From the NCBI GenBank assembly GCA_963775465.1, contig CAVZIW010000003.1:332205-396204 (forward strand): DNA of 64,000 bases. The letters run 5' to 3'. Under the pieces are notes generated by a model that did no database searches, had not been told where the DNA came from, and saw only the letters and a program-made list of their open reading frames with translations. Shown here one piece after another: positions 24,643 to 43,275 of the stretch; the first letter of the stretch is position 1; every line of letters starts with the position of its first letter. The stretch comes from Candidatus Bathyarchaeota archaeon (GTDB taxonomy: Archaea > Thermoproteota > Bathyarchaeia > Bathyarchaeales > Bathycorpusculaceae). The position numbers were made by a program, and so were the translations under genes.

Positions 24643-24715
24643 AATGGATCCCTCAATCTGTTGATTGTACTTATTCTATCTGTTTTTATTTGTTTTTTGC
24701 CTATTTACGTTTCTG

Positions 24716-25699
24716 CTATTTCCAGTATTCTTTTGCCATAAATTCGGCACTAAAGCTGTCAAGATCGCCTAATTCTTCTGGGTATGGCTCGAGAAATGTT
24801 TGGTTAGCAAGATAATCGTTTTTGAATCTTATTATCCACGACTTGAGGATATTTATGTTTGCACTTAGTGGTAGTCTTCCTTCTTTGTATTTTTCTAAAG
24901 ATTTGATGAAGAAGGATTTTTCTTCTTTTGAGAGTTGATTTGAGAAATAGCCCATAATCTTTAACATGACGTTTATGTTTGATCCAGCGGTTGGAATTCG
25001 TGCAAAAGCTCTGCAAAGGCTTCTTTCAAAGGAATTGAAGATCTCATTAGTTGGTTTTTGTTCTTGGTTAGCAGCTATTTTTCCCATTATCCTGAGTTCT
25101 ATTTGACTATGAGCTGTAAACAAATACTTGTTTTGAGATTGAAATTGGACGAGTTCTCTTATTTTTCCTGATTTTTTTATTTCTCTAAAACTTGTAAAAG
25201 TGAATAGTTTTGTTAGGAAATGTTCCTTTATTCTTGGATTAAGAAGTCGACGTTCGTCTTCAATTGCTAAACAAGGAAACTTTTCAAGCACTGCTTTTCC
25301 AAAGAATCCGGGTCCTTTTCCTATTGAAGCTGAGTTCTCAAGTTTAGGATAAATCTTGACGTTTTTAAATCCACTACTGGGAGAACCGCTTTTTAGTATA
25401 AAGCCATCTACTTCTTTTAATGAGATTAAGAATGATTGTGCAAATCCATTCATTTTTTCAGTGAAGTCAAGACCTGTTGATGGTTGCATAAGCCTGTTTT
25501 CGCCATTTACTAGCACAATGCGTATTGGCTTGCGGGGTACGCTAAATCCTATTTCCACCTCAGGACATATTGGAATAAAATTTACGTGGGGTTTTAGTTT
25601 TTCTACAAAATCGCTTGAAATTATTGTGCCATCCCATCTAACTGGTGAAAAGGTAATGCATTTGGAGACTACTACTGTGGGTTTGGAAAATTTCCTCAA
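24716..25699 (-). CDS. DUF523 + DUF1722 (YbgA; TudS/RudS-like) protein
   Basis: VSKC..VRWDG, CPEVEIG, LKS.SPSSG, KY.FTAHS, GYFS, YLANQTFLEPYP. Confidence 0.88.
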   Translation of the reverse strand: MRKFSKPTVVVSKCITFSPVRWDGTIISSDFVEKLKPHVNFIPICPEVEIGFSVPRKPIRIVLVNGENRLMQPSTGLDFTEKMNGFAQSFLISLKEVDGFILKSGSPSSGFKNVKIYPKLENSASIGKGPGFFGKAVLEKFPCLAIEDERRLLNPRIKEHFLTKLFTFTSFREIKKSGKIRELVQFQSQNKYLFTAHSQIELRIMGKIAANQEQKPTNEIFNSFERSLCRAFARIPTAGSNINVMLKIMGYFSNQLSKEEKSFFIKSLEKYKEGRLPLSANINILKSWIIRFKNDYLANQTFLEPYPEELGDLDSFSAEFMAKEYWK

Positions 25700-25836
25700 T
25701 GAAGAACCTCCTTTTCTGTAGCCTTAATACTAGTTAATTAATACATTTCATAAGTTTTTGCATTACAGAAAGACTATCAAAATTGCCTAATAGCGGATAT
25801 TAATCGAAATAGTTTTACGAATAAATTTTAATAAAT

Positions 25837-25950
25837 TGGCGCCGGGAGGGGGATTTGAACCCCCGCGGCCCCGAGAGGCCACAAGCTAACAGGTACACCC
25901 TGAAGAGTGAATCTCCAGGCTTGCTCCCTGCCTGGCTAGGAGACCCCGGC
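25837..25950 (-). tRNA. tRNA-Ser(GGA) with 25-nt intron at 37/38 (25888-25912), encoded CCA
   Basis: GCCGGGG/TCCCGGC acceptor, CAAGC-CTGGAG^A-GCTTG anticodon arm, long variable arm, TTCAAAT T-loop. Confidence 0.93.
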
Positions 25951-26249
25951 AATTTAAAACCACCACTTAAAGGATGATTTGCACCTTTTCTCTGAGTTAG
26001 GCACAATTTAAAGCTTTATCGAAAAGCATGATTTTCGCGTTTGCTTTAGAGAATTTGGTTATTTTTGTTTGAATTGGTTAAGTTTCCATCAATCTTAACA
26101 TTAAAGAAAACGCCAGAACGCCATAAATTGAAGGGGCTCCGACAAAAAGACAGAATGTAAAGGCTCTCCATGGTTTAAATCAAGGATTTAGGGTTCCGAA
26201 ACCTAAAATAAGTGCGTGACAAAAGTATAGCCATTTGAGGTTTAACCTA

Positions 26250-27506
26250 TTGTCATCAATCATCGAGGACCTCATTGCCCGAAAGATTTTCAATAACCGT
26301 GGAGAAGAAACAATAGAGGTCGACGTTATAACTACTGCTGGTTTTGGACGCTCGGGGGCACCAGCAGGCAAAAGTCGAGGAAAAGCTGAAGTGGTCTATT
26401 ACCCTCAAGGCGGCGTAGATGCAGCCGTAAAGAAAATCGACGACTTAATTGCCCCCGAACTCGCTGGACTAAACGCTGATTTTCAGGAAGAAATCGATAA
26501 CACTCTTCACGAAATTGATGGTACAGCAAACTTCAAAAACATCGGTGGCAACACTGCATTTGCAATTAGTTTAGCTAACGCAGAGGCTGCAGCCAATTCG
26601 CATGGCTTATTATTATTCCAATTTTTGGGTGGAAACGCCGCAAACACTCTGCCTTTTCCACTTGGCAACTGTATAAGTGGAGGCGCGCATGCACGAGGCG
26701 GCAAGACTCCAAGTATCCAAGAATATTTGGCGCTGCCTCATGGTGCTGAGAGTTTTTTGGAAGCCCAAACTGCTAACACTCAGATTCATAAAAGAATTGA
26801 GTCAGCCCTGAAAAAGAAGAGTACTACTTTTACAGGCGGTAAAAGTGATGAGGGTGCATGGATTGCTAACATTGACACCGATGATGCTTTCGATGTTATT
26901 GCCAAAGCCTGTGAAGAAGTCGGTAATCAGATGGATTTTGAATGTGGGTTTGGCATTGATGTTGCGGCCTCATCGTTTTGGAAGCCTAAAGAAGAAAAAT
27001 ACGTCTATGAAATGGAAGGTAAAAAACGTGACACTGCCGAACAGCTCGAGTACATGTTGGAGCTTATCGAAAAGTATCATTTGACATATGTTGAGGATCC
27101 GTTTGCGGAAGATGATTTTGAAAGTTTTGCTGAATTAACAAAGAAAGCAAGGAATTGCATGATTTGCGGAGACGATTTATTCACAACCAATACTGAAAGG
27201 TTAAATAATGGATTAAAGATTAACGCTGGAAACGCTATCATCATAAAAGTCAACCAGATAGGCACCTTAACTGATGCGGTTGAAACAATTGAGTTAGCGC
27301 AAAGACACGGTTACGATGCTGTAGTTTCCCACCGCTCAGGTGACACATGTGATTGGCACATTGCCCATTTGGCTGTAGCCTACAAATGCCCTGTGATCAA
27401 AACTGGTGTAGTTGAAGGCGCACGTATAGCCAAACTAAACGAACTAATACGAATTGAGCATTTCCTCGGTAACCGCGCCAGAATGGCTGAATTAAAAATG
27501 CGATAA
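26250..27506 (+). CDS. eno: Enolase
   Basis: NNRGEETIEV, GGAHA, SDEG, GIDVAAS, EDPF, GDDLF, IKVNQIGT, SHRSGDT. Confidence 0.96.
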   Translation: MSSIIEDLIARKIFNNRGEETIEVDVITTAGFGRSGAPAGKSRGKAEVVYYPQGGVDAAVKKIDDLIAPELAGLNADFQEEIDNTLHEIDGTANFKNIGGNTAFAISLANAEAAANSHGLLLFQFLGGNAANTLPFPLGNCISGGAHARGGKTPSIQEYLALPHGAESFLEAQTANTQIHKRIESALKKKSTTFTGGKSDEGAWIANIDTDDAFDVIAKACEEVGNQMDFECGFGIDVAASSFWKPKEEKYVYEMEGKKRDTAEQLEYMLELIEKYHLTYVEDPFAEDDFESFAELTKKARNCMICGDDLFTTNTERLNNGLKINAGNAIIIKVNQIGTLTDAVETIELAQRHGYDAVVSHRSGDTCDWHIAHLAVAYKCPVIKTGVVEGARIAKLNELIRIEHFLGNRARMAELKMR

Positions 27507-34512: not shown

Positions 34513-34589
34513 GCCCCGATGGCTCAGCCTGGTAGAGCGGCTGCCTCGTAAGCAGCAGGCCGCGGGATCAAAGCCCGCTCGAGGCTCCA
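34513..34589 (+). tRNA. tRNA-Thr(CGT), encoded CCA
   Basis: GCTC-AGCCTGGTA-GAGC D arm, GCTGC-CTCGTAA-GCAGC, GCGGG-ATCAAAG-CCCGC; TTTAAAAA about 30 nt upstream. Confidence 0.9.
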
Positions 34590-35896: not shown

Positions 35897-36022
35897 TTGG
35901 CTCCTTCACAATAAGACCCAAAATACTGTTCAACTTGTTTTAGTTAAAAGGTTTTAGTTAACGTATATGAGATAGTCTCCATTTGAAGCCTCTAAAATCA
36001 GTCCCAAACTGAAGGATTACAG

Positions 36023-36455
36023 ATGAAGTATAAATGTGTTAAATCTGTGTGTGAGGTTTGTGGTAAAGTCTCTACTATTCAGTTATTTTTCAGAAGCATC
36101 GGAGAGTTAGCGTATGGCAGAGCTAGACACTATTTAGGTAAGAAGGAAGATAAACCTCAGTTTGAGATATCATCCTCAAAGCATAGAGACTCTGAAAACT
36201 TTATTAAAAACACAATCTATCTCTGTGACTACTGAAAAGGCTAATGATGGTCATATAGGTCACCTGCAGAATGATGACCAACTTGAGCATGAAAATAGCC
36301 TTAAACAGCAAAATAGTTGGGGCCATCGGCTAGCTTGGTCTAGGCTTGTAGACTTGGGCTCTATAGACTCCGGTTCAAATCCGGGTGGCCCCACCATATC
36401 ATTTCTGGATTTAACCCTGAATCGTCTTCTTCAAATCAAATTGGATGATTCATAA
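36023..36455 (+). pseudogene. Frameshifted CxxC/His protein reading through tRNA-Pro; possible split-integrase N-fragment
   Basis: ORFs 36023-36235 and 36162-36455 join by removing one base near 36167 (QFE-YHPQS). Confidence 0.45.
36319..36396 (+). tRNA. tRNA-Pro(TGG), encoded CCA
   Basis: GGGGCCA/TGGCCCC acceptor, GTAGA-CTTGGGC-TCTAT, CCGG-TTCAAAT-CCGG. Confidence 0.93.
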
Positions 36456-36659
36456 GTGTGGAAATTGCTAGAAGAAACATCGACTGTTCTTATCTATAAC
36501 TTTTAAGTGGTATGACGCTGTTTTGAAACAGTTTTTTTGCTTTTCTAATTTAACTATGGCCGATCTGGAATCTGCAAATTTGATATGCTAAATTTTGAAA
36601 TGTGTTTTATAGCAAGTTTTATCTTGTTAGATTTTTATTTATTAAAAGGGGAACATTTG

Positions 36660-36805
36660 TGACTAAGGAGAAAGCGAAAATTAGGATTATTTTTTTACCT
36701 TTTGCAATTGTTTTTTGGGGGTTGGGCTGGTTTTTGAGTTCTGTCGGTGAAAAAAAGTCAAAGAAAGCAAGTGTTAGCTTTTCTCATTTTTCGAGAAAGC
36801 ATTAA
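36660..36805 (+). CDS. Small single-TM protein
   Basis: AGGGG SD before GTG 36660; IIFLPFAIVFWGLGWFL.SVG. Confidence 0.45.
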
Positions 36806-36898
36806 TCCAAAATCTGTTTACCAAATTTGTTGTGTCTTTTTGTAATCACACATATTCTTATTCGTTAATTTGTTAATAGTTAAGAGGAGAATGAAATA

Positions 36899-37105
36899 AT
36901 GACTGTTGTGAAAATAGTTGAGTTAATTGGGACTTCACCAAATAATTGGGAGGAAGCTGTTAAGAATGCTTTGGCGCAGGCGGCAAAGACAATTAAAAAT
37001 ATCAAGTCTATTTATGTTAAAAGCTGCAAAGCAACGGTAGAGAACAACAAAATTGCAGAATACCGAGCTGTAGTCAAAATAGCTTTTGTCGTTGAAGGCA
37101 GTTAA
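36899..37105 (+). CDS. Dodecin family protein
   Basis: KIVELIGTSPNNWEEAVKNA..A.KT...YR..KIAF; GAGGAG SD. Confidence 0.92.
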   Translation: MTVVKIVELIGTSPNNWEEAVKNALAQAAKTIKNIKSIYVKSCKATVENNKIAEYRAVVKIAFVVEGS

Positions 37106-37382
37106 GATACTGCTATACTGTTCCTTTTATGCTCCTCGAACTAACTGTTTCAGTTTTGTCTGTGGTACTTTTTGTTCATTAAGGTAGGTGACTATGAACT
37201 TTGGGTTACCCAAGGTTTAGCTGTAACTTTGTTTGAAAGAACGTAGTTTCTGATTAATTGTTAGAATTTTGTTCCTTAGTATCTGCTTATGGGACCATTT
37301 ATATTTAGAAAAAGCTTGTTTTGGTGCGATAATCTTCTAAATTATTATAGTTGAAGAACTATGCATCTTTAGGGACGATAAT

Positions 37383-37643
37383 TTGACGAGTGATTATGAG
37401 CCTAAACGTTTTGCTGTTAATTTAGATAACTTGGATTTTGCTAAAATCAAGCGGGTGGGCGATAAAGTTATGCAAATGTTAAACAAAAAAGTGAGTAATC
37501 CGGTTGAGGCATACTTTCTTCTTAAATTGTTGTGTTTCTCCATTGAGGCTTCTGAAGGTTTTAAGTTGATGCCTGAAGACGAGGAAAGATTGCGGGAACT
37601 TTGTTTTAAGCCATCAGGGACTGATTTAAAAGATACTCCTTGA
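37383..37643 (+). CDS. Hypothetical protein
   Basis: 86-aa ORF with helical composition. Confidence 0.5.
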   Translation: MTSDYEPKRFAVNLDNLDFAKIKRVGDKVMQMLNKKVSNPVEAYFLLKLLCFSIEASEGFKLMPEDEERLRELCFKPSGTDLKDTP

Positions 37644-37863
37644 TATGGTGTAAAAATGATAAACGGGTAAGAGTTGTGTGGATATGCAAGTGTGATGGCG
37701 AGCCACCAATGCATTCCCTCTTAACCCAAACTGTGGTAAGGTAGTTTTTAGTCTAAAGCTTTGTGAAGCTTGAATTCATATTAGCAATCAGTTTGACGAA
37801 AAATTAGATTTTTGCTGATAGATTAGCGTTTTGTTGTTTTGTGTTTTTGAAGATTAGGAGGTT

Positions 37864-37927
37864 GGGTCAGCGACGATTGACGATTTCTCACAGCCTAGGG
37901 CTCGAAGCCGTCGCCTCACATCATCCC
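37864..37927 (-). ncRNA. Box C/D methylation guide sRNA
   Basis: GGG-ATGATGT(C)-GAGGCGACGGCT-TCGA(D')-...-TGTGA(C')-GAAATCGTCAATCGTCG-CTGA(D)-CCC; terminal GGG/CCC stem. Confidence 0.75.
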
Positions 37928-38312
37928 GCGCTTAATTTGATGTAGGGGCGGATTTATCTATTTTGGGTTCGGGATAAAATATTGCAAAGATTAAAGAATA
38001 AATGTCAATTACGAAACAACTTGGTTTATGAATCTTGAGCTCGGGTGTTGCGGTTTTGGCGGCTTCTGATTTTAATATTACGGCTTTATTTGAATATGCT
38101 GGTATAGATTGTTGGATTTGTGCTGTCTTGTCTGGTTTGGTTGCATTGCAGTTGCACTTTGTCCCAATAGTTATTCTTGAGGTGCAGGGTACAGAGCTGC
38201 GAATATTGATAGAACTATATCAAGTGTGTTTTCTTTTTTGTTAAATTATGTTTCTCAAAAAGAGTACAAAAAATAGTGCACAAAACATGTTTTTCTTGGG
38301 AGCTTGTTGAGC

Positions 38313-38348
38313 GATTAACGTCAGTTGACGAATCTAAATGTTTAAACT
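38313..38348 (+). promoter_or_regulatory. Palindrome plus TATA box of the micro-peptide gene
   Basis: GATT-aa-CGTCA-gt-TGACG-AATC immediately upstream of TTTAAACT. Confidence 0.45.
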
Positions 38349-38401
38349 TACGTAAGAGCAGGGTATCCTAAATGCTGTTTCGTTGGAGGTGAAAAGGTTA
38401 C

Positions 38402-38470
38402 ATGATATTCGAAGAAGATGAGGAATGGGAAGAGGGCGAAGATGAGGAATGGGAAGAAGAAGAATGGTAA
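38402..38470 (+). CDS. 22-aa acidic Trp-repeat micro-peptide MIFEEDEEWEEGEDEEWEEEEW
   Basis: GGAGGTGA SD (38385-38392) 9 nt before ATG, TATA upstream, T-rich tract downstream. Confidence 0.75.
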   Translation: MIFEEDEEWEEGEDEEWEEEEW

Positions 38471-38628
38471 GCTAGCTCTTAGTGCGAAAATTTTGTAATC
38501 TTTCTTTAATTTTAATTTCTTCTTGTTTATTTTTGATTTATTTTTTTGTTGCCGATTGGATTAGTCTTGAGTTTTTTTTGGGTTTATATTTATAACTGAC
38601 TTGTGGGATTCATTAATCGAAGTTTATC

Positions 38629-40482
38629 ATGACGCGGATCGCTGTCTTAAACGCCGACAAGTGCAAGGTCAAAAAATGCAATCAACTTTGCGTAAGCTAT
38701 TGCCCCATGGTGCGGAGTCGAGTGGAAGCTATACGCGTGGAGGGTAACAAAGCTCTTATCTCTGAAGTGCTTTGCAGCGGGTGTGGTATCTGCGTCAAAA
38801 AATGTCCTTTTAAGGCCATTAGTATTGTGAATTTGCCTGATGAGCTTGAAAAGGATTGTAGTCATCGATTTAGCGCTAACAGTTTCAAGCTTTTCCGTTT
38901 GCCTATGCCTTCGCCGGGTACTGTTTTGGGGTTGCTTGGGCAAAATGGAATTGGAAAAAGTACCACATTGAAGGTTTTCTCAGGGGAAATTAAGCCTAAC
39001 TTGGGTAAATTCGATTCTGCACCTGACTGGCCGGAAATCATTCAGTACTATCGCGGTTCTAGCTTGCAAGATTATTTTCAGAAGTTAAGCAAGAATCAAC
39101 TTAAAGTTAGCAGTAAACCTCAGTATGTTGATAAGATTCCTAAAGCTGTTGAAGGTAAAGCTGGAGATTTACTGGAAAAAGTTGATGAGCGTAAACAGCT
39201 TGATGCGATTGCTGAAGAGTTAGAGCTTAAGAAAATTTGGGATCGTGCTCTTGATGTGCTTAGTGGTGGGGAGCTTCAGCGTGTTGCGGTTGCGGCGGCT
39301 CTTAGTCGTGATGCGGATGTTTATCTTTTTGATGAGCCTTCGAGTTATTTGGATGTGAAGCAGCGTCTTGTGGTTGCTAGGGCGATTCGTAGCCTTAAGG
39401 AGCAGCAAAAAACTATAGTTGTTGCTGAACATGATTTGGCTATTATCGATTACTTGTCTGACCAAATCTGTGTTTTCTATGGTGAGCCGGGAGTGTATGG
39501 TGTTGTTTCTCATGTGCATGGTGTGCGTACTGGCATTAACATATACCTTCAGGGTTACATAGCTGATGAGAACATTTTGTTTAGAAAAGAATCTATTGTT
39601 TTTCATGAGAAACCTCCAGCAACTGCAGGTACCCTGATTGGTGAGCCTTTGCTCAAGTGGGATAATATGGAGAAGACCTTCCAAGGCTTCAAACTTGCCA
39701 TCGAACCAGGAGAAATCAGGGCTAGCGAAATCATCGGAATTCTTGGACCCAACGGGATAGGTAAAACAACTTTTGTTAAGATTCTTGCGGGTCTTGAAGA
39801 AACTGACGATAAACGTCAGCTTAGTAAGTTAACGGTTAGCTATAAGCCTCAGTATATAGCTCCAGATTATGAAGGTACCGTGCAGGAGTTGTTGATGAAT
39901 GTGGCAAAAGATAACTTTACTTCTAGTTGGTATAAAACCGAAATTGCTCAGCCCCTTCGGCTTCAAGTTTTGTTGGATCGTAACGTAATGGAGCTTAGCG
40001 GTGGGGAACTTCAAAAAGTTGCCATAGCTGCTTGTCTTAGCCGTAAAACCGATCTGTTCCTGCTCGATGAACCTAGTGCCTATTTGGATGTTGAGGAGCG
40101 TTTAAACGTTGCAAAGACGTTGCGGCGTGTGGTCGAGGCTCATGGAATTCCTGCATTTGTTGTTGAACATGATGTTGTGACGCAAGACTTTATCGCTGAT
40201 CGTCTCATGGTTTTTAATGGGCAACCGGGTGAGAGTGGAAAAGCTCATCCTCCGACAACGTTGCGTGCCGGGATGAATACATTCCTTAAAGAAATGGACA
40301 TTACTTTCCGACGAGACTCAACTACCTTCCGGCCTCGTGTTAACAAGGAAGATTCACAGATGGATAAGTTCCAAAAAGACATCGGTGAATATTATTATAC
40401 AAAAGTAACCAGAGACAAAGACGAAAAAGAGGATAAGGCTGCAAAAGAGGCTTCAAAGAAGATGGAATCAGCTAAGAAATAG
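38629..40482 (+). CDS. rli: Ribosome recycling ATPase ABCE1 (RLI)
   Basis: N-terminal 2x[4Fe-4S] Cys motifs, GQNGIGKST/GPNGIGKTT, two LSGGELQ, hinge ITFRRD..RPRVNK. Confidence 0.97.
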   Translation: MTRIAVLNADKCKVKKCNQLCVSYCPMVRSRVEAIRVEGNKALISEVLCSGCGICVKKCPFKAISIVNLPDELEKDCSHRFSANSFKLFRLPMPSPGTVLGLLGQNGIGKSTTLKVFSGEIKPNLGKFDSAPDWPEIIQYYRGSSLQDYFQKLSKNQLKVSSKPQYVDKIPKAVEGKAGDLLEKVDERKQLDAIAEELELKKIWDRALDVLSGGELQRVAVAAALSRDADVYLFDEPSSYLDVKQRLVVARAIRSLKEQQKTIVVAEHDLAIIDYLSDQICVFYGEPGVYGVVSHVHGVRTGINIYLQGYIADENILFRKESIVFHEKPPATAGTLIGEPLLKWDNMEKTFQGFKLAIEPGEIRASEIIGILGPNGIGKTTFVKILAGLEETDDKRQLSKLTVSYKPQYIAPDYEGTVQELLMNVAKDNFTSSWYKTEIAQPLRLQVLLDRNVMELSGGELQKVAIAACLSRKTDLFLLDEPSAYLDVEERLNVAKTLRRVVEAHGIPAFVVEHDVVTQDFIADRLMVFNGQPGESGKAHPPTTLRAGMNTFLKEMDITFRRDSTTFRPRVNKEDSQMDKFQKDIGEYYYTKVTRDKDEKEDKAAKEASKKMESAKK

Positions 40483-40670
40483 ATAACGCATAGGTTTAGC
40501 TGTCAAACCATTAATTTTACATTTTTAGCGCAAAAATATTCATGTAAGTCTGTCTCCGTGTGCTTCTAAAACGTGGCTTTTATACTTAGAGTGCAGTTAA
40601 CTTAAAGAACCACCAACAAATATACTTAGCATTCGCAAAAACAAAACGGGGAAAGTGGTGTAAGCAGCAA

Positions 40671-42197
40671 GTGGCTCAAGCAACATTCGAAGAAATTTCG
40701 GCATCTGACTTTTTTTACCGTAACCGTGACATCGCAGGCTTAACAAACCCCTCGCGTAGCATCTTTGTTGCCATTCGTGAAGTTGTTGAAAATAGTCTTG
40801 ACGCTGCTGAGAGCCAAAAGATTCCTCCGAATATTTATGTGCGTTTGTCTTTTGAGTCAGAAGCAACTAAGGCTACTCAAATCTATAAGCTTCATGTTGC
40901 AGACAACGGCAGTGGGATTCCTCCAAAGTTTATCCCTTCCGCGTTTGGACAGGTTCTCTATGGCAGTAAGTATAAGCTCAAACAGGCCCGAGGTACTTTT
41001 GGGCTTGGTGGCAAGATGGCGGTGTTGTATGGGCAAATCACTACGCACCAGCCTGTTTTTGTAACTTCGAGCACTGGGCAGGAAAAAATCTACAGTTTTA
41101 AACTGATGATTGATATCCAGCGGAATAGGCCTATAATTTTGGATCGTAAAGTTCTGATAAATAAGGATCGTTGGCAGGGAACAATAATTGAGTTCACGTT
41201 GGAAGGTGACTATTTGCGTGCTATGCCTAAAATTATTGATTACTTTAAGCAGACAGCCATGGTTAACCCGTATGCAAATATCACTTTTGTGGATCCTAAG
41301 GGTAGGCTCTACAAGTTTGTAAGGGCAACAACAGTTATGCCTGATCCGCCCAAAGAGACTATGCCTCACCCTTACGGTGTTGATGTTGAGTTGTTGCAGC
41401 GGCTTATCCAAATTACTGAATTTAATAACATGAGTAGTTTTCTGAGAGGGCATTTTCATAGAGTCGGGGAAATTACGGCGCAAAAGTTTTTGGATTTTGC
41501 TGGTATCTCTCCGAAGAAGAATCCGAAAAAACTTGCTCATGAAGAAATAGTGCGGTTGATGCAGAACCTTAAAAGGTTTAAAGACTTCCTTCCGCCCGAT
41601 GCTAACTGTCTTTCACCTTTGGGTGAAGAGTTGCTTAAGGCTGGTGTTGTGAAAGAGTTAAACCCTGAGTATTTGGTTGTGCATCAGCGTAAGCCTTCAA
41701 CTTATGCAGGTCATCCGTTCATTGTGGAGATGGCTATGGCTTACGGTGGGAACGTGCCTAAGAGCGGTACTTTTGTTATCTATCGTTTTGCTAACAAAAT
41801 TCCGCTTCTTTATGATGAAGCCAGTGATGTTTCTTATCGTGTGATTTCGGCTATGAATTGGCGTCGTTATAAGGTGCATCCTGAGATGCCGATCGCTATT
41901 GTGGTGCACATTTGCAGTACCAAAGTGCCCTACAAGACTGTGGGCAAGGAATTCATAAGTGATCGTCCCGAAATAAGGCGGGAGGTTGCGAATGCGCTTA
42001 GGGAGGTTGCACGGCAGATTCAGCATTTTCTTGCTAGGCAAGAGCATGTTCATATGGAGAAGAAGCGGTTGGGGATTTTTAGCAAGTTTCTGCCTAAGAT
42101 CGCGGAGTTTTCAACTATTCTTGCGAGGCAGGAGAAGAAGCCTGATATCGAAAAATTACTAAAGAGTGTGCAGAAGTATGGATCAGAAGAAAGCTAA
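40671..42197 (+). CDS. top6B: DNA topoisomerase VI subunit B
   Basis: EVVENSLDA, DNGSG, RGTFGLG, PHPYG, RFANKIPL, STKVPY. Confidence 0.97.
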   Translation: MAQATFEEISASDFFYRNRDIAGLTNPSRSIFVAIREVVENSLDAAESQKIPPNIYVRLSFESEATKATQIYKLHVADNGSGIPPKFIPSAFGQVLYGSKYKLKQARGTFGLGGKMAVLYGQITTHQPVFVTSSTGQEKIYSFKLMIDIQRNRPIILDRKVLINKDRWQGTIIEFTLEGDYLRAMPKIIDYFKQTAMVNPYANITFVDPKGRLYKFVRATTVMPDPPKETMPHPYGVDVELLQRLIQITEFNNMSSFLRGHFHRVGEITAQKFLDFAGISPKKNPKKLAHEEIVRLMQNLKRFKDFLPPDANCLSPLGEELLKAGVVKELNPEYLVVHQRKPSTYAGHPFIVEMAMAYGGNVPKSGTFVIYRFANKIPLLYDEASDVSYRVISAMNWRRYKVHPEMPIAIVVHICSTKVPYKTVGKEFISDRPEIRREVANALREVARQIQHFLARQEHVHMEKKRLGIFSKFLPKIAEFSTILARQEKKPDIEKLLKSVQKYGSEES

Positions 42198-43275
42198 GGT
42201 TGCAGAAAGAAAAGAAGAAGTTGTTTCTTGTCTGAAGAGGTTTGGTACTGAGATCTACAATCAGTTAGATCAGGGTGTTTTCCCCACGATTAACATGCCG
42301 AGTCGTTCTACTGAGAACATTACTTATGATTCTGCGCTTCGTCAGTACATTTTAGGTGAAAGGGTTGTTACTCGTAGTGCTCGTAACATTCGTCATATAA
42401 GGCCTTTTACTCAGCTTGCTTGGGCGGCGATGTTTGGTAATGAGTTGACTACTCAGCGCAAGACCTCAACGTTGAGAGATGTGTATTATTCGGCTCAGGC
42501 TTATGAGATGACTTTTAATGATCAGCAGGAATCGAACAATATAATTACTGATCTTGAGACTTTGACTGGGTTTGCTCGAGAGGATTTTCATATTTTTCCT
42601 GAAGAGCGTAGTGCTATTTTTGGTGACTTAGATATCGGTTATACTGTTCCAGGTTACGAGGGTAAATCGCTTAACTTGACTAGCCATCCTGATGGAGTTT
42701 TGATCGGGCCAGCGTTGACTACTTCTGAGTTTTTAGGAACTAAGGCTGATAAGGTCATTGCGATTGAGAAGGGTGCTTTGTTTACGAGGTTTATTGAAGA
42801 AAATGTTCACAATAAGCATAAGTCTCTGCTTATTTCGTGTGGTGGTCAAGCTCCTAGGCAGACTCGTAGTTTTATTAGGCGTTTGCATGATGAGTTGAAT
42901 TTGCCGGTTTATATTTTAACTGACGGTGACCCGTGGGGGATGCATATTGCTCAAGTTATCATTTCAGGTTCAGCTAATGCTGCGCATCTTCGTGAACTTA
43001 ATACGCCTGATGCGGTTTGGAGTGGAGTTTGGGCAAGTGATATAGTTGAGTATAAGCTGCCAACTGATCCGCTCGATGAGGTTGATATTAAGCGTCTGTA
43101 TGAGTTGCAGAGGGATCCGCGTTATCAGAATGATCCTTTGTGGCAGCGAGAAATTAAGTTGTTTCTTAAGATTAAGCGCAAGGCGGAACAGGAAGCTTTC
43201 AGCAGGTACGGATTAACCTACATTGTGGATGAATATTTGCCTACTAAGCTTGAAGGTGCAAAGGGCAAAAAGTAG
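42178..43275 (+). CDS. top6A: DNA topoisomerase VI subunit A
   Basis: TLRDVYY catalytic Tyr, IEK, GQ, DGDPWG, KAEQEA. Confidence 0.97.
   Translation: MDQKKAKVAERKEEVVSCLKRFGTEIYNQLDQGVFPTINMPSRSTENITYDSALRQYILGERVVTRSARNIRHIRPFTQLAWAAMFGNELTTQRKTSTLRDVYYSAQAYEMTFNDQQESNNIITDLETLTGFAREDFHIFPEERSAIFGDLDIGYTVPGYEGKSLNLTSHPDGVLIGPALTTSEFLGTKADKVIAIEKGALFTRFIEENVHNKHKSLLISCGGQAPRQTRSFIRRLHDELNLPVYILTDGDPWGMHIAQVIISGSANAAHLRELNTPDAVWSGVWASDIVEYKLPTDPLDEVDIKRLYELQRDPRYQNDPLWQREIKLFLKIKRKAEQEAFSRYGLTYIVDEYLPTKLEGAKGKK

Follow-up and report, generated by a model that had tools for sequence, protein, structure and literature searches.

Next to the gene for ABCE1, the ATPase of ribosome recycling, the archaeal genome of Candidatus Bathyarchaeota archaeon (2.42 Mb, 40.5% GC) very probably carries a real coding gene of only 22 codons, a micro open reading frame (micro-ORF) whose product is composed mostly of acidic residues interrupted by Trp. 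The DNA analyzed here, called the window below, is a stretch of 64,000 nucleotides (nt) of this genome (contig CAVZIW010000003.1, positions 332,205 to 396,204), and the micro-ORF lies at its positions 38402-38470. The encoded peptide is one member of a family that is previously undescribed and unannotated and that, as far as sequences tell, is conserved across Thermoproteota, namely in Bathyarchaeia, in Desulfurococcales, and in Sulfolobales- and Thermoproteales-type lineages, with ABCE1 as its genomic partner. What may such a peptide do? We tentatively regard the micro-ORF as a free-standing translated gene whose product would be a trans-acting, disordered ligand of acidic-aromatic type for the translation-recycling machinery, with ABCE1 as the likeliest target, and we give this reading somewhat less than an even chance.

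How can such a short reading frame be taken for a gene? Short ORFs are common in this DNA, and 76 ORFs of 20 amino acids (aa) or more overlap positions 36000-41500. The peptide from the micro-ORF has 15 acidic residues out of 22, three Trp and three EEW units, with a charge of about -15. Among the 46,534 ORFs of at least 15 aa in the whole genome, two have 60% or more Asp and Glu in their last 18 residues, and the micro-ORF is one of them. Because of this rarity, and because the frame is conserved in relatives, the micro-ORF is not supposed to have arisen by chance. For the comparison within the genus, ABCE1 with its 1.5-kb flanks was taken from 40 relatives, and a gap-free core of 18 codons was followed through 19 same-genus sequences, which amount to 11 distinct DNAs. 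All the variable columns of this core (11/11) fall on codon position 3; nine of the varying codons change synonymously only, and the other two exchange Asp and Glu. The Shine-Dalgarno (SD) region, GAGGTGAAAA, is invariant in 19/19 of the sequences. The original prediction had described a genuine peptide gene with its own expression signals, and had named a lack of frame-preserving conservation as the observation that would speak against it. Conservation turned out to be strictly frame-preserving, and together with the invariant SD and a conserved promoter block it bears out this description; we infer that the micro-ORF is translated in vivo.

The opposite explanation is that there is no gene here: the ORF could be accidental, in a spacer rich in purines, the DNA could specify a non-coding RNA, or coding could lie in another frame or on the other strand. 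The GAR-rich DNA is indeed open in several frames, including a Lys-rich +1-frame ORF at 38418-38498 of the window, and Phe-rich antisense ORFs occur in relatives. However, the variable columns correspond to position 2 in the +1 frame and to position 1 in the antisense frame, and therefore neither the Lys-rich nor the Phe-rich alternative appears to be selected; coding in both frames was rejected, as residues in either would be altered by these changes. Furthermore, GAT/GAC variation abolishes the +1-frame ATGs in some relatives. The Glu/Trp frame has kept its SD and ATG, and for the antisense strand the ORF listing of the window shows nothing of 20 aa or more across 38402-38470. Searching 37600-38900 against Rfam 15 (E≤10) gave sub-threshold matches only, the best at 19 bits against a gathering score of 70. 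Thus, we grade the absence of a gene as close to refuted. It is to be added, as an observation on annotation, that the antisense strand of the micro-ORF in relatives reads as a Phe/Pro-rich ORF of 60-93 aa (..PFFFFPFFIFAFFPFIFFFEYH..), for example at L007 474-659(-), L039 1474-1755(+), L014 1022-1255(-) and L090 1474-1659(+) (G, C, L and f numbers are our handles for genomes, contigs, loci and families). Gene callers could take this ORF for a membrane protein; by the codon-position pattern, its frame is not selected.

The elements around the micro-ORF are collected in Table 1. Those that the original prediction had listed, i.e., a palindrome, a TATA box at 38341, an SD, the acidic/Trp ORF with its internal duplication at 38414/38438 and a T-rich tract, are all present in the sequence, and the separate TATA box that it had assigned to ABCE1 was also found, as a TATA-like box. 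The promoter block is near-invariant over the 19 same-genus loci while its flanking DNA varies freely and is not alignable, and the column of the TATA-like box keeps TTTAAA or CTTAAA throughout the genus alignment. The conserved 20-nt core of the block has a single exact site in the genome, and three other matches have three mismatches each, which is about the level of the backwards control. Since the core occurs exactly once, the idea that this motif governs a regulon was rejected. The palindrome within the block is imperfect in most relatives, where the left arm is CGACA, and it is possibly a site for a regulator. As for the internal repeat, its two units are 88% identical and share their initial 20 nt; the repeat is old, because the units differ at synonymous sites in relatives. 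The T-rich tract likely contains one or more archaeal oligo-T terminators, and a TTTTCTTT-type run about 30 nt past the stop codon is recurrent in the genus alignment. ABCE1 itself has no SD, and a short-leader mRNA is therefore expected for it. In the roughly 600 nt in front of the promoter block (37715-38312), no ORF exceeds 70 aa, Rfam gives no match, and the genus shows no conservation that can be aligned.

Table 1. Features of the window around the micro-ORF and ABCE1 (window positions)
Feature	Position	Strand	Remarks
Micro-protein gene	38402-38470	+	22 codons plus stop, encodes MIFEEDEEWEEGEDEEWEEEEW; from ORF listing
SD GGAGGTGA	38385-38392	+	9 nt 5' of micro-ORF ATG
TATA-like box TTTAAA	38341-38346	+	about 56 nt 5' of micro-ORF ATG; read from sequence
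Conserved promoter block TTAACGnCAnTTGACGAATCTAAAnnnTTTAAA	38313-38346	+	about 34 nt; ends with the TATA-like box
Palindrome CGTCA-GT-TGACG (CGTCAGTTGACG)	38319-38330	.	within promoter block; read from sequence
Tandem duplication, EDEEWEEG / EDEEWEEE	38414-38461	+	24-nt (8-codon) unit; repeat family D1; units at 38414 and 38438
T-rich tract	38491-38581	+	3' of micro-ORF stop; read from sequence
ABCE1 TATA-like box TTTATATTTATAA	38583-38595	+	34-46 nt 5' of ABCE1 ATG; read from sequence
ABCE1 (Rli1-type twin-ATPase, N-terminal FeS domain)	38629-40482	+	617-aa ORF
Topoisomerase VI B and A genes	40671-43275		directly 3' of ABCE1; Pfam
Dodecin gene (PF07311)	36899-37105		ordinary neighbor; Pfam
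tRNA-Pro(UGG)	36319-36396		ordinary neighbor
tRNA-Thr(CGU)	34513-34589		ordinary neighbor

How far does the family extend? A scan of one genome per prokaryotic species with the pattern W-EEEE(x)-W-stop gave at least 120 loci. Approximately 80 of the 120 matches listed are short ORFs of the same kind as the micro-ORF, and among these matches the records are titled Bathyarchaeia, Desulfurococcaceae, Ignisphaera, Hyperthermus, Pyrodictium, Thermogladius, Thermoproteus, Thermoproteales, Ca. Aramenus (Sulfolobales) and 'Nitrososphaerota', while the bacterial matches among those listed are the C-termini of unrelated long ORFs. Pooling of all the members yielded at least 107 distinct peptides from 142 loci, 20-55 aa in length with a median of 27. 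Their composition is extreme, with 63.6% Glu, 15.8% Trp, 4.5% Asp, and 1.6% for Lys, Arg and His together. Each peptide has three to nine Trp, with one exception having two, and the commonest spacing is five residues. A hydrophobic or aromatic residue directly follows the initial Met in 88 of the 107 (MIF, MVF, MLWL, MKWLIL and others), and all 107 end with EEW, although the latter is partly forced by search patterns that demand acidic-Trp-stop. The architecture of the family can thus be written as Met, one to five hydrophobic or aromatic residues, and (Glu3-8-Trp) repeated three to nine times, ending ...EEW-COOH.

In an even sample of 201 Thermoproteota genomes, a loose pattern was found in 97, and the clean signature W-(D/E)3-6-W-stop, judged by eye, in 68. 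Matches from 41 of these 68 were translated; 39 are family peptides and two (G119 and G200) are chance matches. As an outgroup control we used 151 genomes from the phylum of a record titled Thermoplasmata, where the loose pattern is as common (68/151) but the clean signature appears in two only, both of minimal length. The signature also undercounts: 7 of 20 genomes from signature-negative families have a variant upstream of ABCE1, ending for example with ...EEELEEEW or ...DFEEEEW. At loci from other families of the same order, the micro-ORF is present in 5/9. No member was detected within 2.5 kb of ABCE1 in f16, f24, f26, f33, f36, f39, f40 and one f7 genome, and a genome-wide look at five genomes of families seemingly without a member gave no acidic-Trp-stop micro-ORF.

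Some related observations are worth recording beside the family. Two records, L069 (titled Krumholzibacteriaceae bacterium) and L117 (titled Nanoarchaeia), hold a typical Bathyarchaeia-type micro-ORF and are probably mis-binned contigs; that of L069 also has the start of an archaeal ABCE1. L110 (titled Hadarchaeota) has a 94-aa Cys-rich frame, Zn-ribbon-like by eye, which ends at 1521 with ...EAEEDYWGWEEEEW, and this protein may have a comparable C-terminal tail joined to a folded domain. A second acidic micro-ORF, MVFEEEDDCGCDEDCNCEECEDEE, is located about 22 kb before the start of the window (G000:C3:310131-310205, + strand; also L226 and L227). It shares the MVFEEE start, has six Cys in place of Trp, and is accompanied by an SD-like AGGTG and a T-run past the stop. 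A strict pattern for it matches only G000 and its closest relative G022 (2/41 relatives), and it therefore gives no clue to function.

The position of the micro-ORF relative to ABCE1 is the other line of evidence. ABCE1 is present in 41/41 relatives and in 198/201 genomes of the phylum. Within the genus, the micro-ORF lies on the same strand within 1.5 kb upstream of ABCE1 at 19 of 21 loci; of the remaining two, one has only 139 nt of upstream DNA and the other has the micro-ORF 2,179 nt upstream. For 59 signature genomes of the phylum the coordinates of ABCE1 are known, and in 41 of them the micro-ORF is within 2.2 kb of the ABCE1 start, mostly 44-400 nt upstream and on the same strand; in one further genome it is located 2.3 kb beyond the 3' end of ABCE1. 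The named records give a similar picture with flanks of about 1.5 kb: ABCE1 stands beside 38 of 50 family loci among the matches listed, downstream on the same strand in 35 and divergent in three, including Ignisphaera, Hyperthermus, Ca. Aramenus and Desulfurococcaceae. The pairing recurs even where the ABCE1 proteins share only 41-50% identity with that of the window, and it outlasts inversion and insertion. In six f17 genomes (G170, G043, G085, G231, G224 and G184) and in G131 of f30 the micro-ORF is divergent from ABCE1, with an RPB9-type Zn-ribbon gene between the two at the f17 locus L177 (assigned by Pfam at that locus), and in six loci of the genus 850-920 nt of unrelated genes separate the two, with the ORF kept. 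It should be noted that these counts describe the synteny and do not test it, because related genomes are not independent and some of the sampled species are also among the named records. The original prediction had allowed that the adjacency to ABCE1 may be incidental, and this caveat did not hold: synteny persists across classes of Thermoproteota, so that the adjacency is not considered incidental, and the tie to ABCE1 and ribosome recycling suggested by the same prediction gains support from it. On the whole, we slightly favor a functional connection of the micro-protein with ABCE1 or with translation.

The loci used for this comparison have some peculiarities of their own. The inserts between the micro-ORF and ABCE1 are of two types. 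The first consists of two small genes without a Pfam match, of 68 aa and about 130-143 aa (L007 785-988 and 996-1424; L008, L012 and L013 alike), and the second is a pair resembling, by eye, a ribbon-helix-helix/PIN toxin-antitoxin module; further insert positions are L016 679-1002 and 1124-1438, and L017. G008 (L020), of the same genus, has tandem ABCE1 genes (G008:C8:22721-24547 and 24672-26483) that are 84% and 69% identical to the window ABCE1, and the micro-ORF precedes the first of them. In f29, ABCE1 is an open frame of about 915 aa (L223 941-3688 in G089:C11; also G073, G143, G081, G112 and G058), in which the FeS domain has its second Cys cluster split by an intein-like insertion that ends ...VVHN before a Cys (CIGCGIC, the insert, then CVKKCPF). 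A natural fusion of the peptide to ABCE1 was considered for f29 and rejected, as the extra length is this insertion and not an acidic/Trp extension.

If the micro-ORF is a gene linked to ABCE1, does it work as a peptide or as a leader? Copies that stand alone, that are divergent from ABCE1, or that are separated from it by insertions favor a peptide acting in trans over a leader ORF. Stand-alone copies with only convergent downstream genes are found at L191-L194 and L177-L181. At a Sulfolobales-type locus only 50 nt separate the micro-ORF from ABCE1; by our reading of the sequence, a TATA-like box lies within this gap and neither gene seems to have a leader. According to the reading that we prefer, the micro-protein would be expressed from its own promoter, SD and T-rich terminator and, as a disordered acidic-aromatic peptide, would bind in trans to the recycling machinery. 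The likeliest target would be ABCE1, either at the peptide cavity of its nucleotide-binding domain 1 (NBD1), which is used by the tail of the ribosomal stalk protein aP1, or at its basic ribosomal RNA (rRNA)-binding faces, and the bound peptide might tune the ATPase activity, ribosome binding or release of ABCE1. This cavity is described for the C-terminal 18-mer of aP1, acidic and hydrophobic, whose binding there has a dissociation constant of 3.9 uM and without which the ATPase is not activated on the ribosome (PMC6125642). A similar place on ABCE1, near the ATP site of NBD1, is reported to be taken by the eIF3j N-terminus in native 43S complexes (PMC7780240), and the acidic motif of this N-terminus is reported to act via a conserved Trp (PMC2824034). 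How, then, might a ribosome complete such an acidic chain? The hydrophobic N-terminus, together with the bulky Trp residues spaced along the chain, could permit it, an idea taken from the work on intrinsic ribosome destabilization (IRD) discussed below. Direct binding of the peptide to ABCE1, proposed by analogy with these ligands, we consider rather unlikely. Still more speculative is the full form of the proposal, a dedicated micro-protein cofactor of ABCE1: poly-Glu/Trp peptides of 20-55 aa would sit in the NBD1 cavity or mask the rRNA-binding faces, would gate the step from splitting to re-initiation, and would be an archaeal functional counterpart, possibly a forerunner, of the acidic-Trp N-terminus of eIF3j, with a Trp spacing that lets ribosomes survive a self-aborting chain. 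We judge this form improbable. A complex prediction from the ABCE1 and peptide alignments gave a score of 0.00, which speaks neither for nor against binding, the peptide being shorter than any calibration partner.

Several observations weigh against the idea of a trans-acting ligand of ABCE1. In 17 of the 59 genomes with known ABCE1 coordinates the micro-ORF is unlinked to ABCE1 (two of the 17 are chance matches). Within a Thermoproteaceae-type family, six of the seven genomes examined have ABCE1 at a distance of hundreds of kb from the micro-ORF; the seventh has three copies of the micro-ORF, and the nearest one lies about 12 kb from ABCE1. In most of the Thermoproteaceae-type genomes examined, the micro-ORF (MP.[WY][FY]REEEEWEEEEELWEEFEEEWEEEEEW) precedes instead the gene for S-adenosylmethionine (AdoMet) decarboxylase, about 125-250 nt upstream of it (L200-L202, L205, L207, L066 and L108; PF02675 confirmed on L200), while L206 and L208 have another downstream gene. 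Several families, including the ammonia-oxidizer-like f16, have ABCE1 but no detectable family member, and therefore ABCE1 does not need the peptide. The same-strand spacing of 44-100 nt upstream of ABCE1 in many lineages fits a leader ORF as well. Finally, the correspondence to the cavity is one of residue numbers: seven of the contact residues listed for it (P164, Y166, I170, V219, A220, A223 and R227) are invariant, at identical numbers, in 22 Bathyarchaeia ABCE1 proteins, and are presumed to be equivalent to those of P. horikoshii ABCE1. G074 has three copies of the micro-ORF, two of them within longer ORFs.

The leader explanation can be put in a specific form, in which the micro-ORF is a cis-acting IRD sensor. 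Completion of the acidic chain would report the stability of ribosomes, as affected by Mg2+, polyamines or recycling capacity, and would set expression of the downstream gene, ABCE1 or, in Thermoproteales-type genomes, AdoMet decarboxylase; the peptide would be a by-product and its Trp residues would tune the sensitivity. Bacterial leaders of the MgtL type are likewise very short ORFs with an acidic run right after the start codon, and such runs are described as destabilizing ribosomes and serving as a sensor, most strongly at the extreme N-terminus, with low Mg2+ raising and bulky residues opposing the effect (10.1101/2021.02.02.429294). IRD is also reported in eukaryotes, linked to 40S recycling (PMC12673854). 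By this standard the window peptide is a textbook ribosome-destabilizing sequence, having three residues and then an almost unbroken acidic run (residues 4-8 are EEDEE, within the first ten or so codons). Among the first 49 genomes tallied, 33 have the micro-ORF upstream of ABCE1 and in the same orientation, often at the short spacing mentioned above, and the gene following it in Thermoproteaceae-type genomes is one for polyamine synthesis. However, MgtL-type leaders always precede the regulated gene, whereas the micro-ORF is kept without any same-strand gene after it, is divergent from ABCE1 across the whole family f17, and is retained behind the inserted genes of the genus. Its own T-rich tract and the separate TATA-like box of ABCE1, here and at the Sulfolobales-type locus, also speak against co-transcription. 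Unlike MgtL-type leaders, the family lacks Pro, contains many bulky Trp residues and has a fixed C-terminus; IRD has no need of an invariant C-terminal Trp, although this invariance is partly built into the search patterns. No archaeal case of IRD was found in the IRD literature examined. Taken together, we regard the sensor as an unlikely explanation.

Returning to a peptide that acts in trans, its target might also be something other than ABCE1, and the synteny would then come from a general co-expression with genes of translation. One can imagine a peptide that chaperones very basic proteins of ribosomes or chromatin, or mimics nucleic acid toward them, a buffer of polyamines or divalent cations, or a DSS1-like glue subunit of some other complex. 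The extreme charge with almost no basic residues is in line with such roles, and so are the unlinked copies beside AdoMet decarboxylase and an EF-2-like gene. The latter was seen by eye at L074 and L103 (titled Nitrososphaerota), where family members of 52-55 aa are arranged tail-to-tail with it. Against this, ABCE1 is the sole neighbor that recurs across orders and outlasts inversion and insertion, with none of the others recurrent across lineages, and we consider another target improbable. An even more specialized role on ABCE1 can be postulated: an acidic peptide with a free C-terminal Trp, or an iron-binding poly-Glu, might be a delivery tag or adaptor that helps to load the two 4Fe-4S clusters of ABCE1. 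In eukaryotes, the C-terminal Trp of Lto1 is reportedly needed to bring Rli1/ABCE1 to the iron-sulfur (Fe-S) targeting complex, a complex that is not known from archaea. Yae1-Lto1 is described as the adaptor for Rli1 (PMC4523923), and a C-terminal signal [LIM]-[DES]-[WF]-COO- is described for the targeting step of cytosolic Fe-S assembly (PMC10245660). The micro-protein is like these in its free C-terminal Trp after an acidic residue (EW-COOH in 107/107, partly by construction of the search patterns) and in its neighbor, which codes for an Fe-S protein of the kind (Rli1/ABCE1) that Lto1 serves specifically. It differs in having Glu at -3 in all 107 peptides, not Leu, Ile or Met, and in lacking the deca-GX3 domain, and Fe-S genes other than ABCE1 are not recurrent neighbors. 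Such an adaptor is thus very unlikely, and the more general reading, a trans-acting ligand of the recycling machinery, is the one with which we continue.

Why has such a family escaped notice? Composition-biased micro-genes are a systematic blind spot of annotation, and at least 107 variants over Bathyarchaeia and Thermoprotei have been missed by gene callers and profile searches. Four family peptides matched no family in Pfam or NCBIfam, and an exact look-up of five peptides found none in a collection of 15 billion proteins. A profile built from the family alignment had no match in 1.84 billion representative proteins; the same profile also found nothing in the known carrier genomes G123 and G085, and since it misses known members, these profile negatives are uninformative. 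A homologue search with a 43-aa member returned three candidates, none scored, and the ESM Atlas holds a 55-aa member, whose nearest clusters (0.79-0.82) are unnamed, bacterial and below a useful level. No published description of the family was found in the full-text literature, subscription-only papers and supplements being outside the scope. ABCE1 is essential and occurs in all archaea and eukaryotes, and the literature searched describes no accessory factor of archaea whose gene lies next to it. Should the peptide act on ABCE1 or on ribosomes, it would be a new component of the step from recycling to initiation, in that archaeal lineage whose ribosomes are the most eukaryote-like; if the acidic run is a sensor instead, it would be the first archaeal case of ribosome-destabilization sensing known to us. 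The carriers include, by record titles, the cultured strains Thermogladius sp. 4427co and Pyrodictium delaneyi, as well as Sulfolobales-type genomes.

What kinds of known molecules does the micro-protein resemble? The original prediction had mentioned Sem1/DSS1, eIF3j and the P-stalk, and none of these can be taken as membership. The window peptide and three relatives matched no Pfam family at E≤10, including the DSS1_SEM1 profile and that of eIF3j, and no P1/P2 stalk family in Pfam or NCBIfam; as profiles are blind to this composition, the likeness that stands is one of kind only. The 22-aa peptide is too short for the helical core of eIF3j, has no dimerization domain as P1/P2 proteins do, and ends with EEW. 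DSS1/Sem1 and CSNAP are free-standing, disordered, hyper-acidic micro-proteins of eukaryotes, which use key Trp residues to dock with larger complexes at their basic or hydrophobic surfaces. Like DSS1/Sem1, the micro-protein is small, free-standing and very acidic, has few or no basic residues, and keeps conserved Trp residues as likely anchors. It is, however, three to four times shorter, consists of a regular (Glu_n-Trp) repeat with an obligatory C-terminal Trp, and belongs to archaea (Thermoproteota), with ABCE1 and not proteasome genes as the recurrent neighbor; no proteasome gene recurs beside it among the loci examined. It is also similar to eIF3j/Hcr1, whose acidic segment makes its contact through a conserved Trp (PMC2824034), and eIF3j is likewise described as a partner of ABCE1 (PMC7780240). 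Yet eIF3j is larger, with a helical dimerization core and a C-terminal tail in the mRNA channel, and its Trp pocket is on the RNA-recognition motif of eIF3b (eIF3b-RRM), which archaea lack. The tail of aP1 is also an acidic linker with a hydrophobic or aromatic end, and it is described as binding the NBD1 cavity of ABCE1 and activating the ATPase on the ribosome (PMC6125642). In contrast to aP1, which is tethered to the ribosome and makes its contacts with Leu and Phe on a short helix, the micro-protein is free, repetitive, far more acidic and uses Trp; by analogy, the two could be expected to compete for the same site on ABCE1. Thus, it resembles in kind, on the one hand, the acidic micro-proteins represented by DSS1/Sem1 and, on the other, the acidic-aromatic linear motifs of the eIF3j N-terminus and the aP1 tail.

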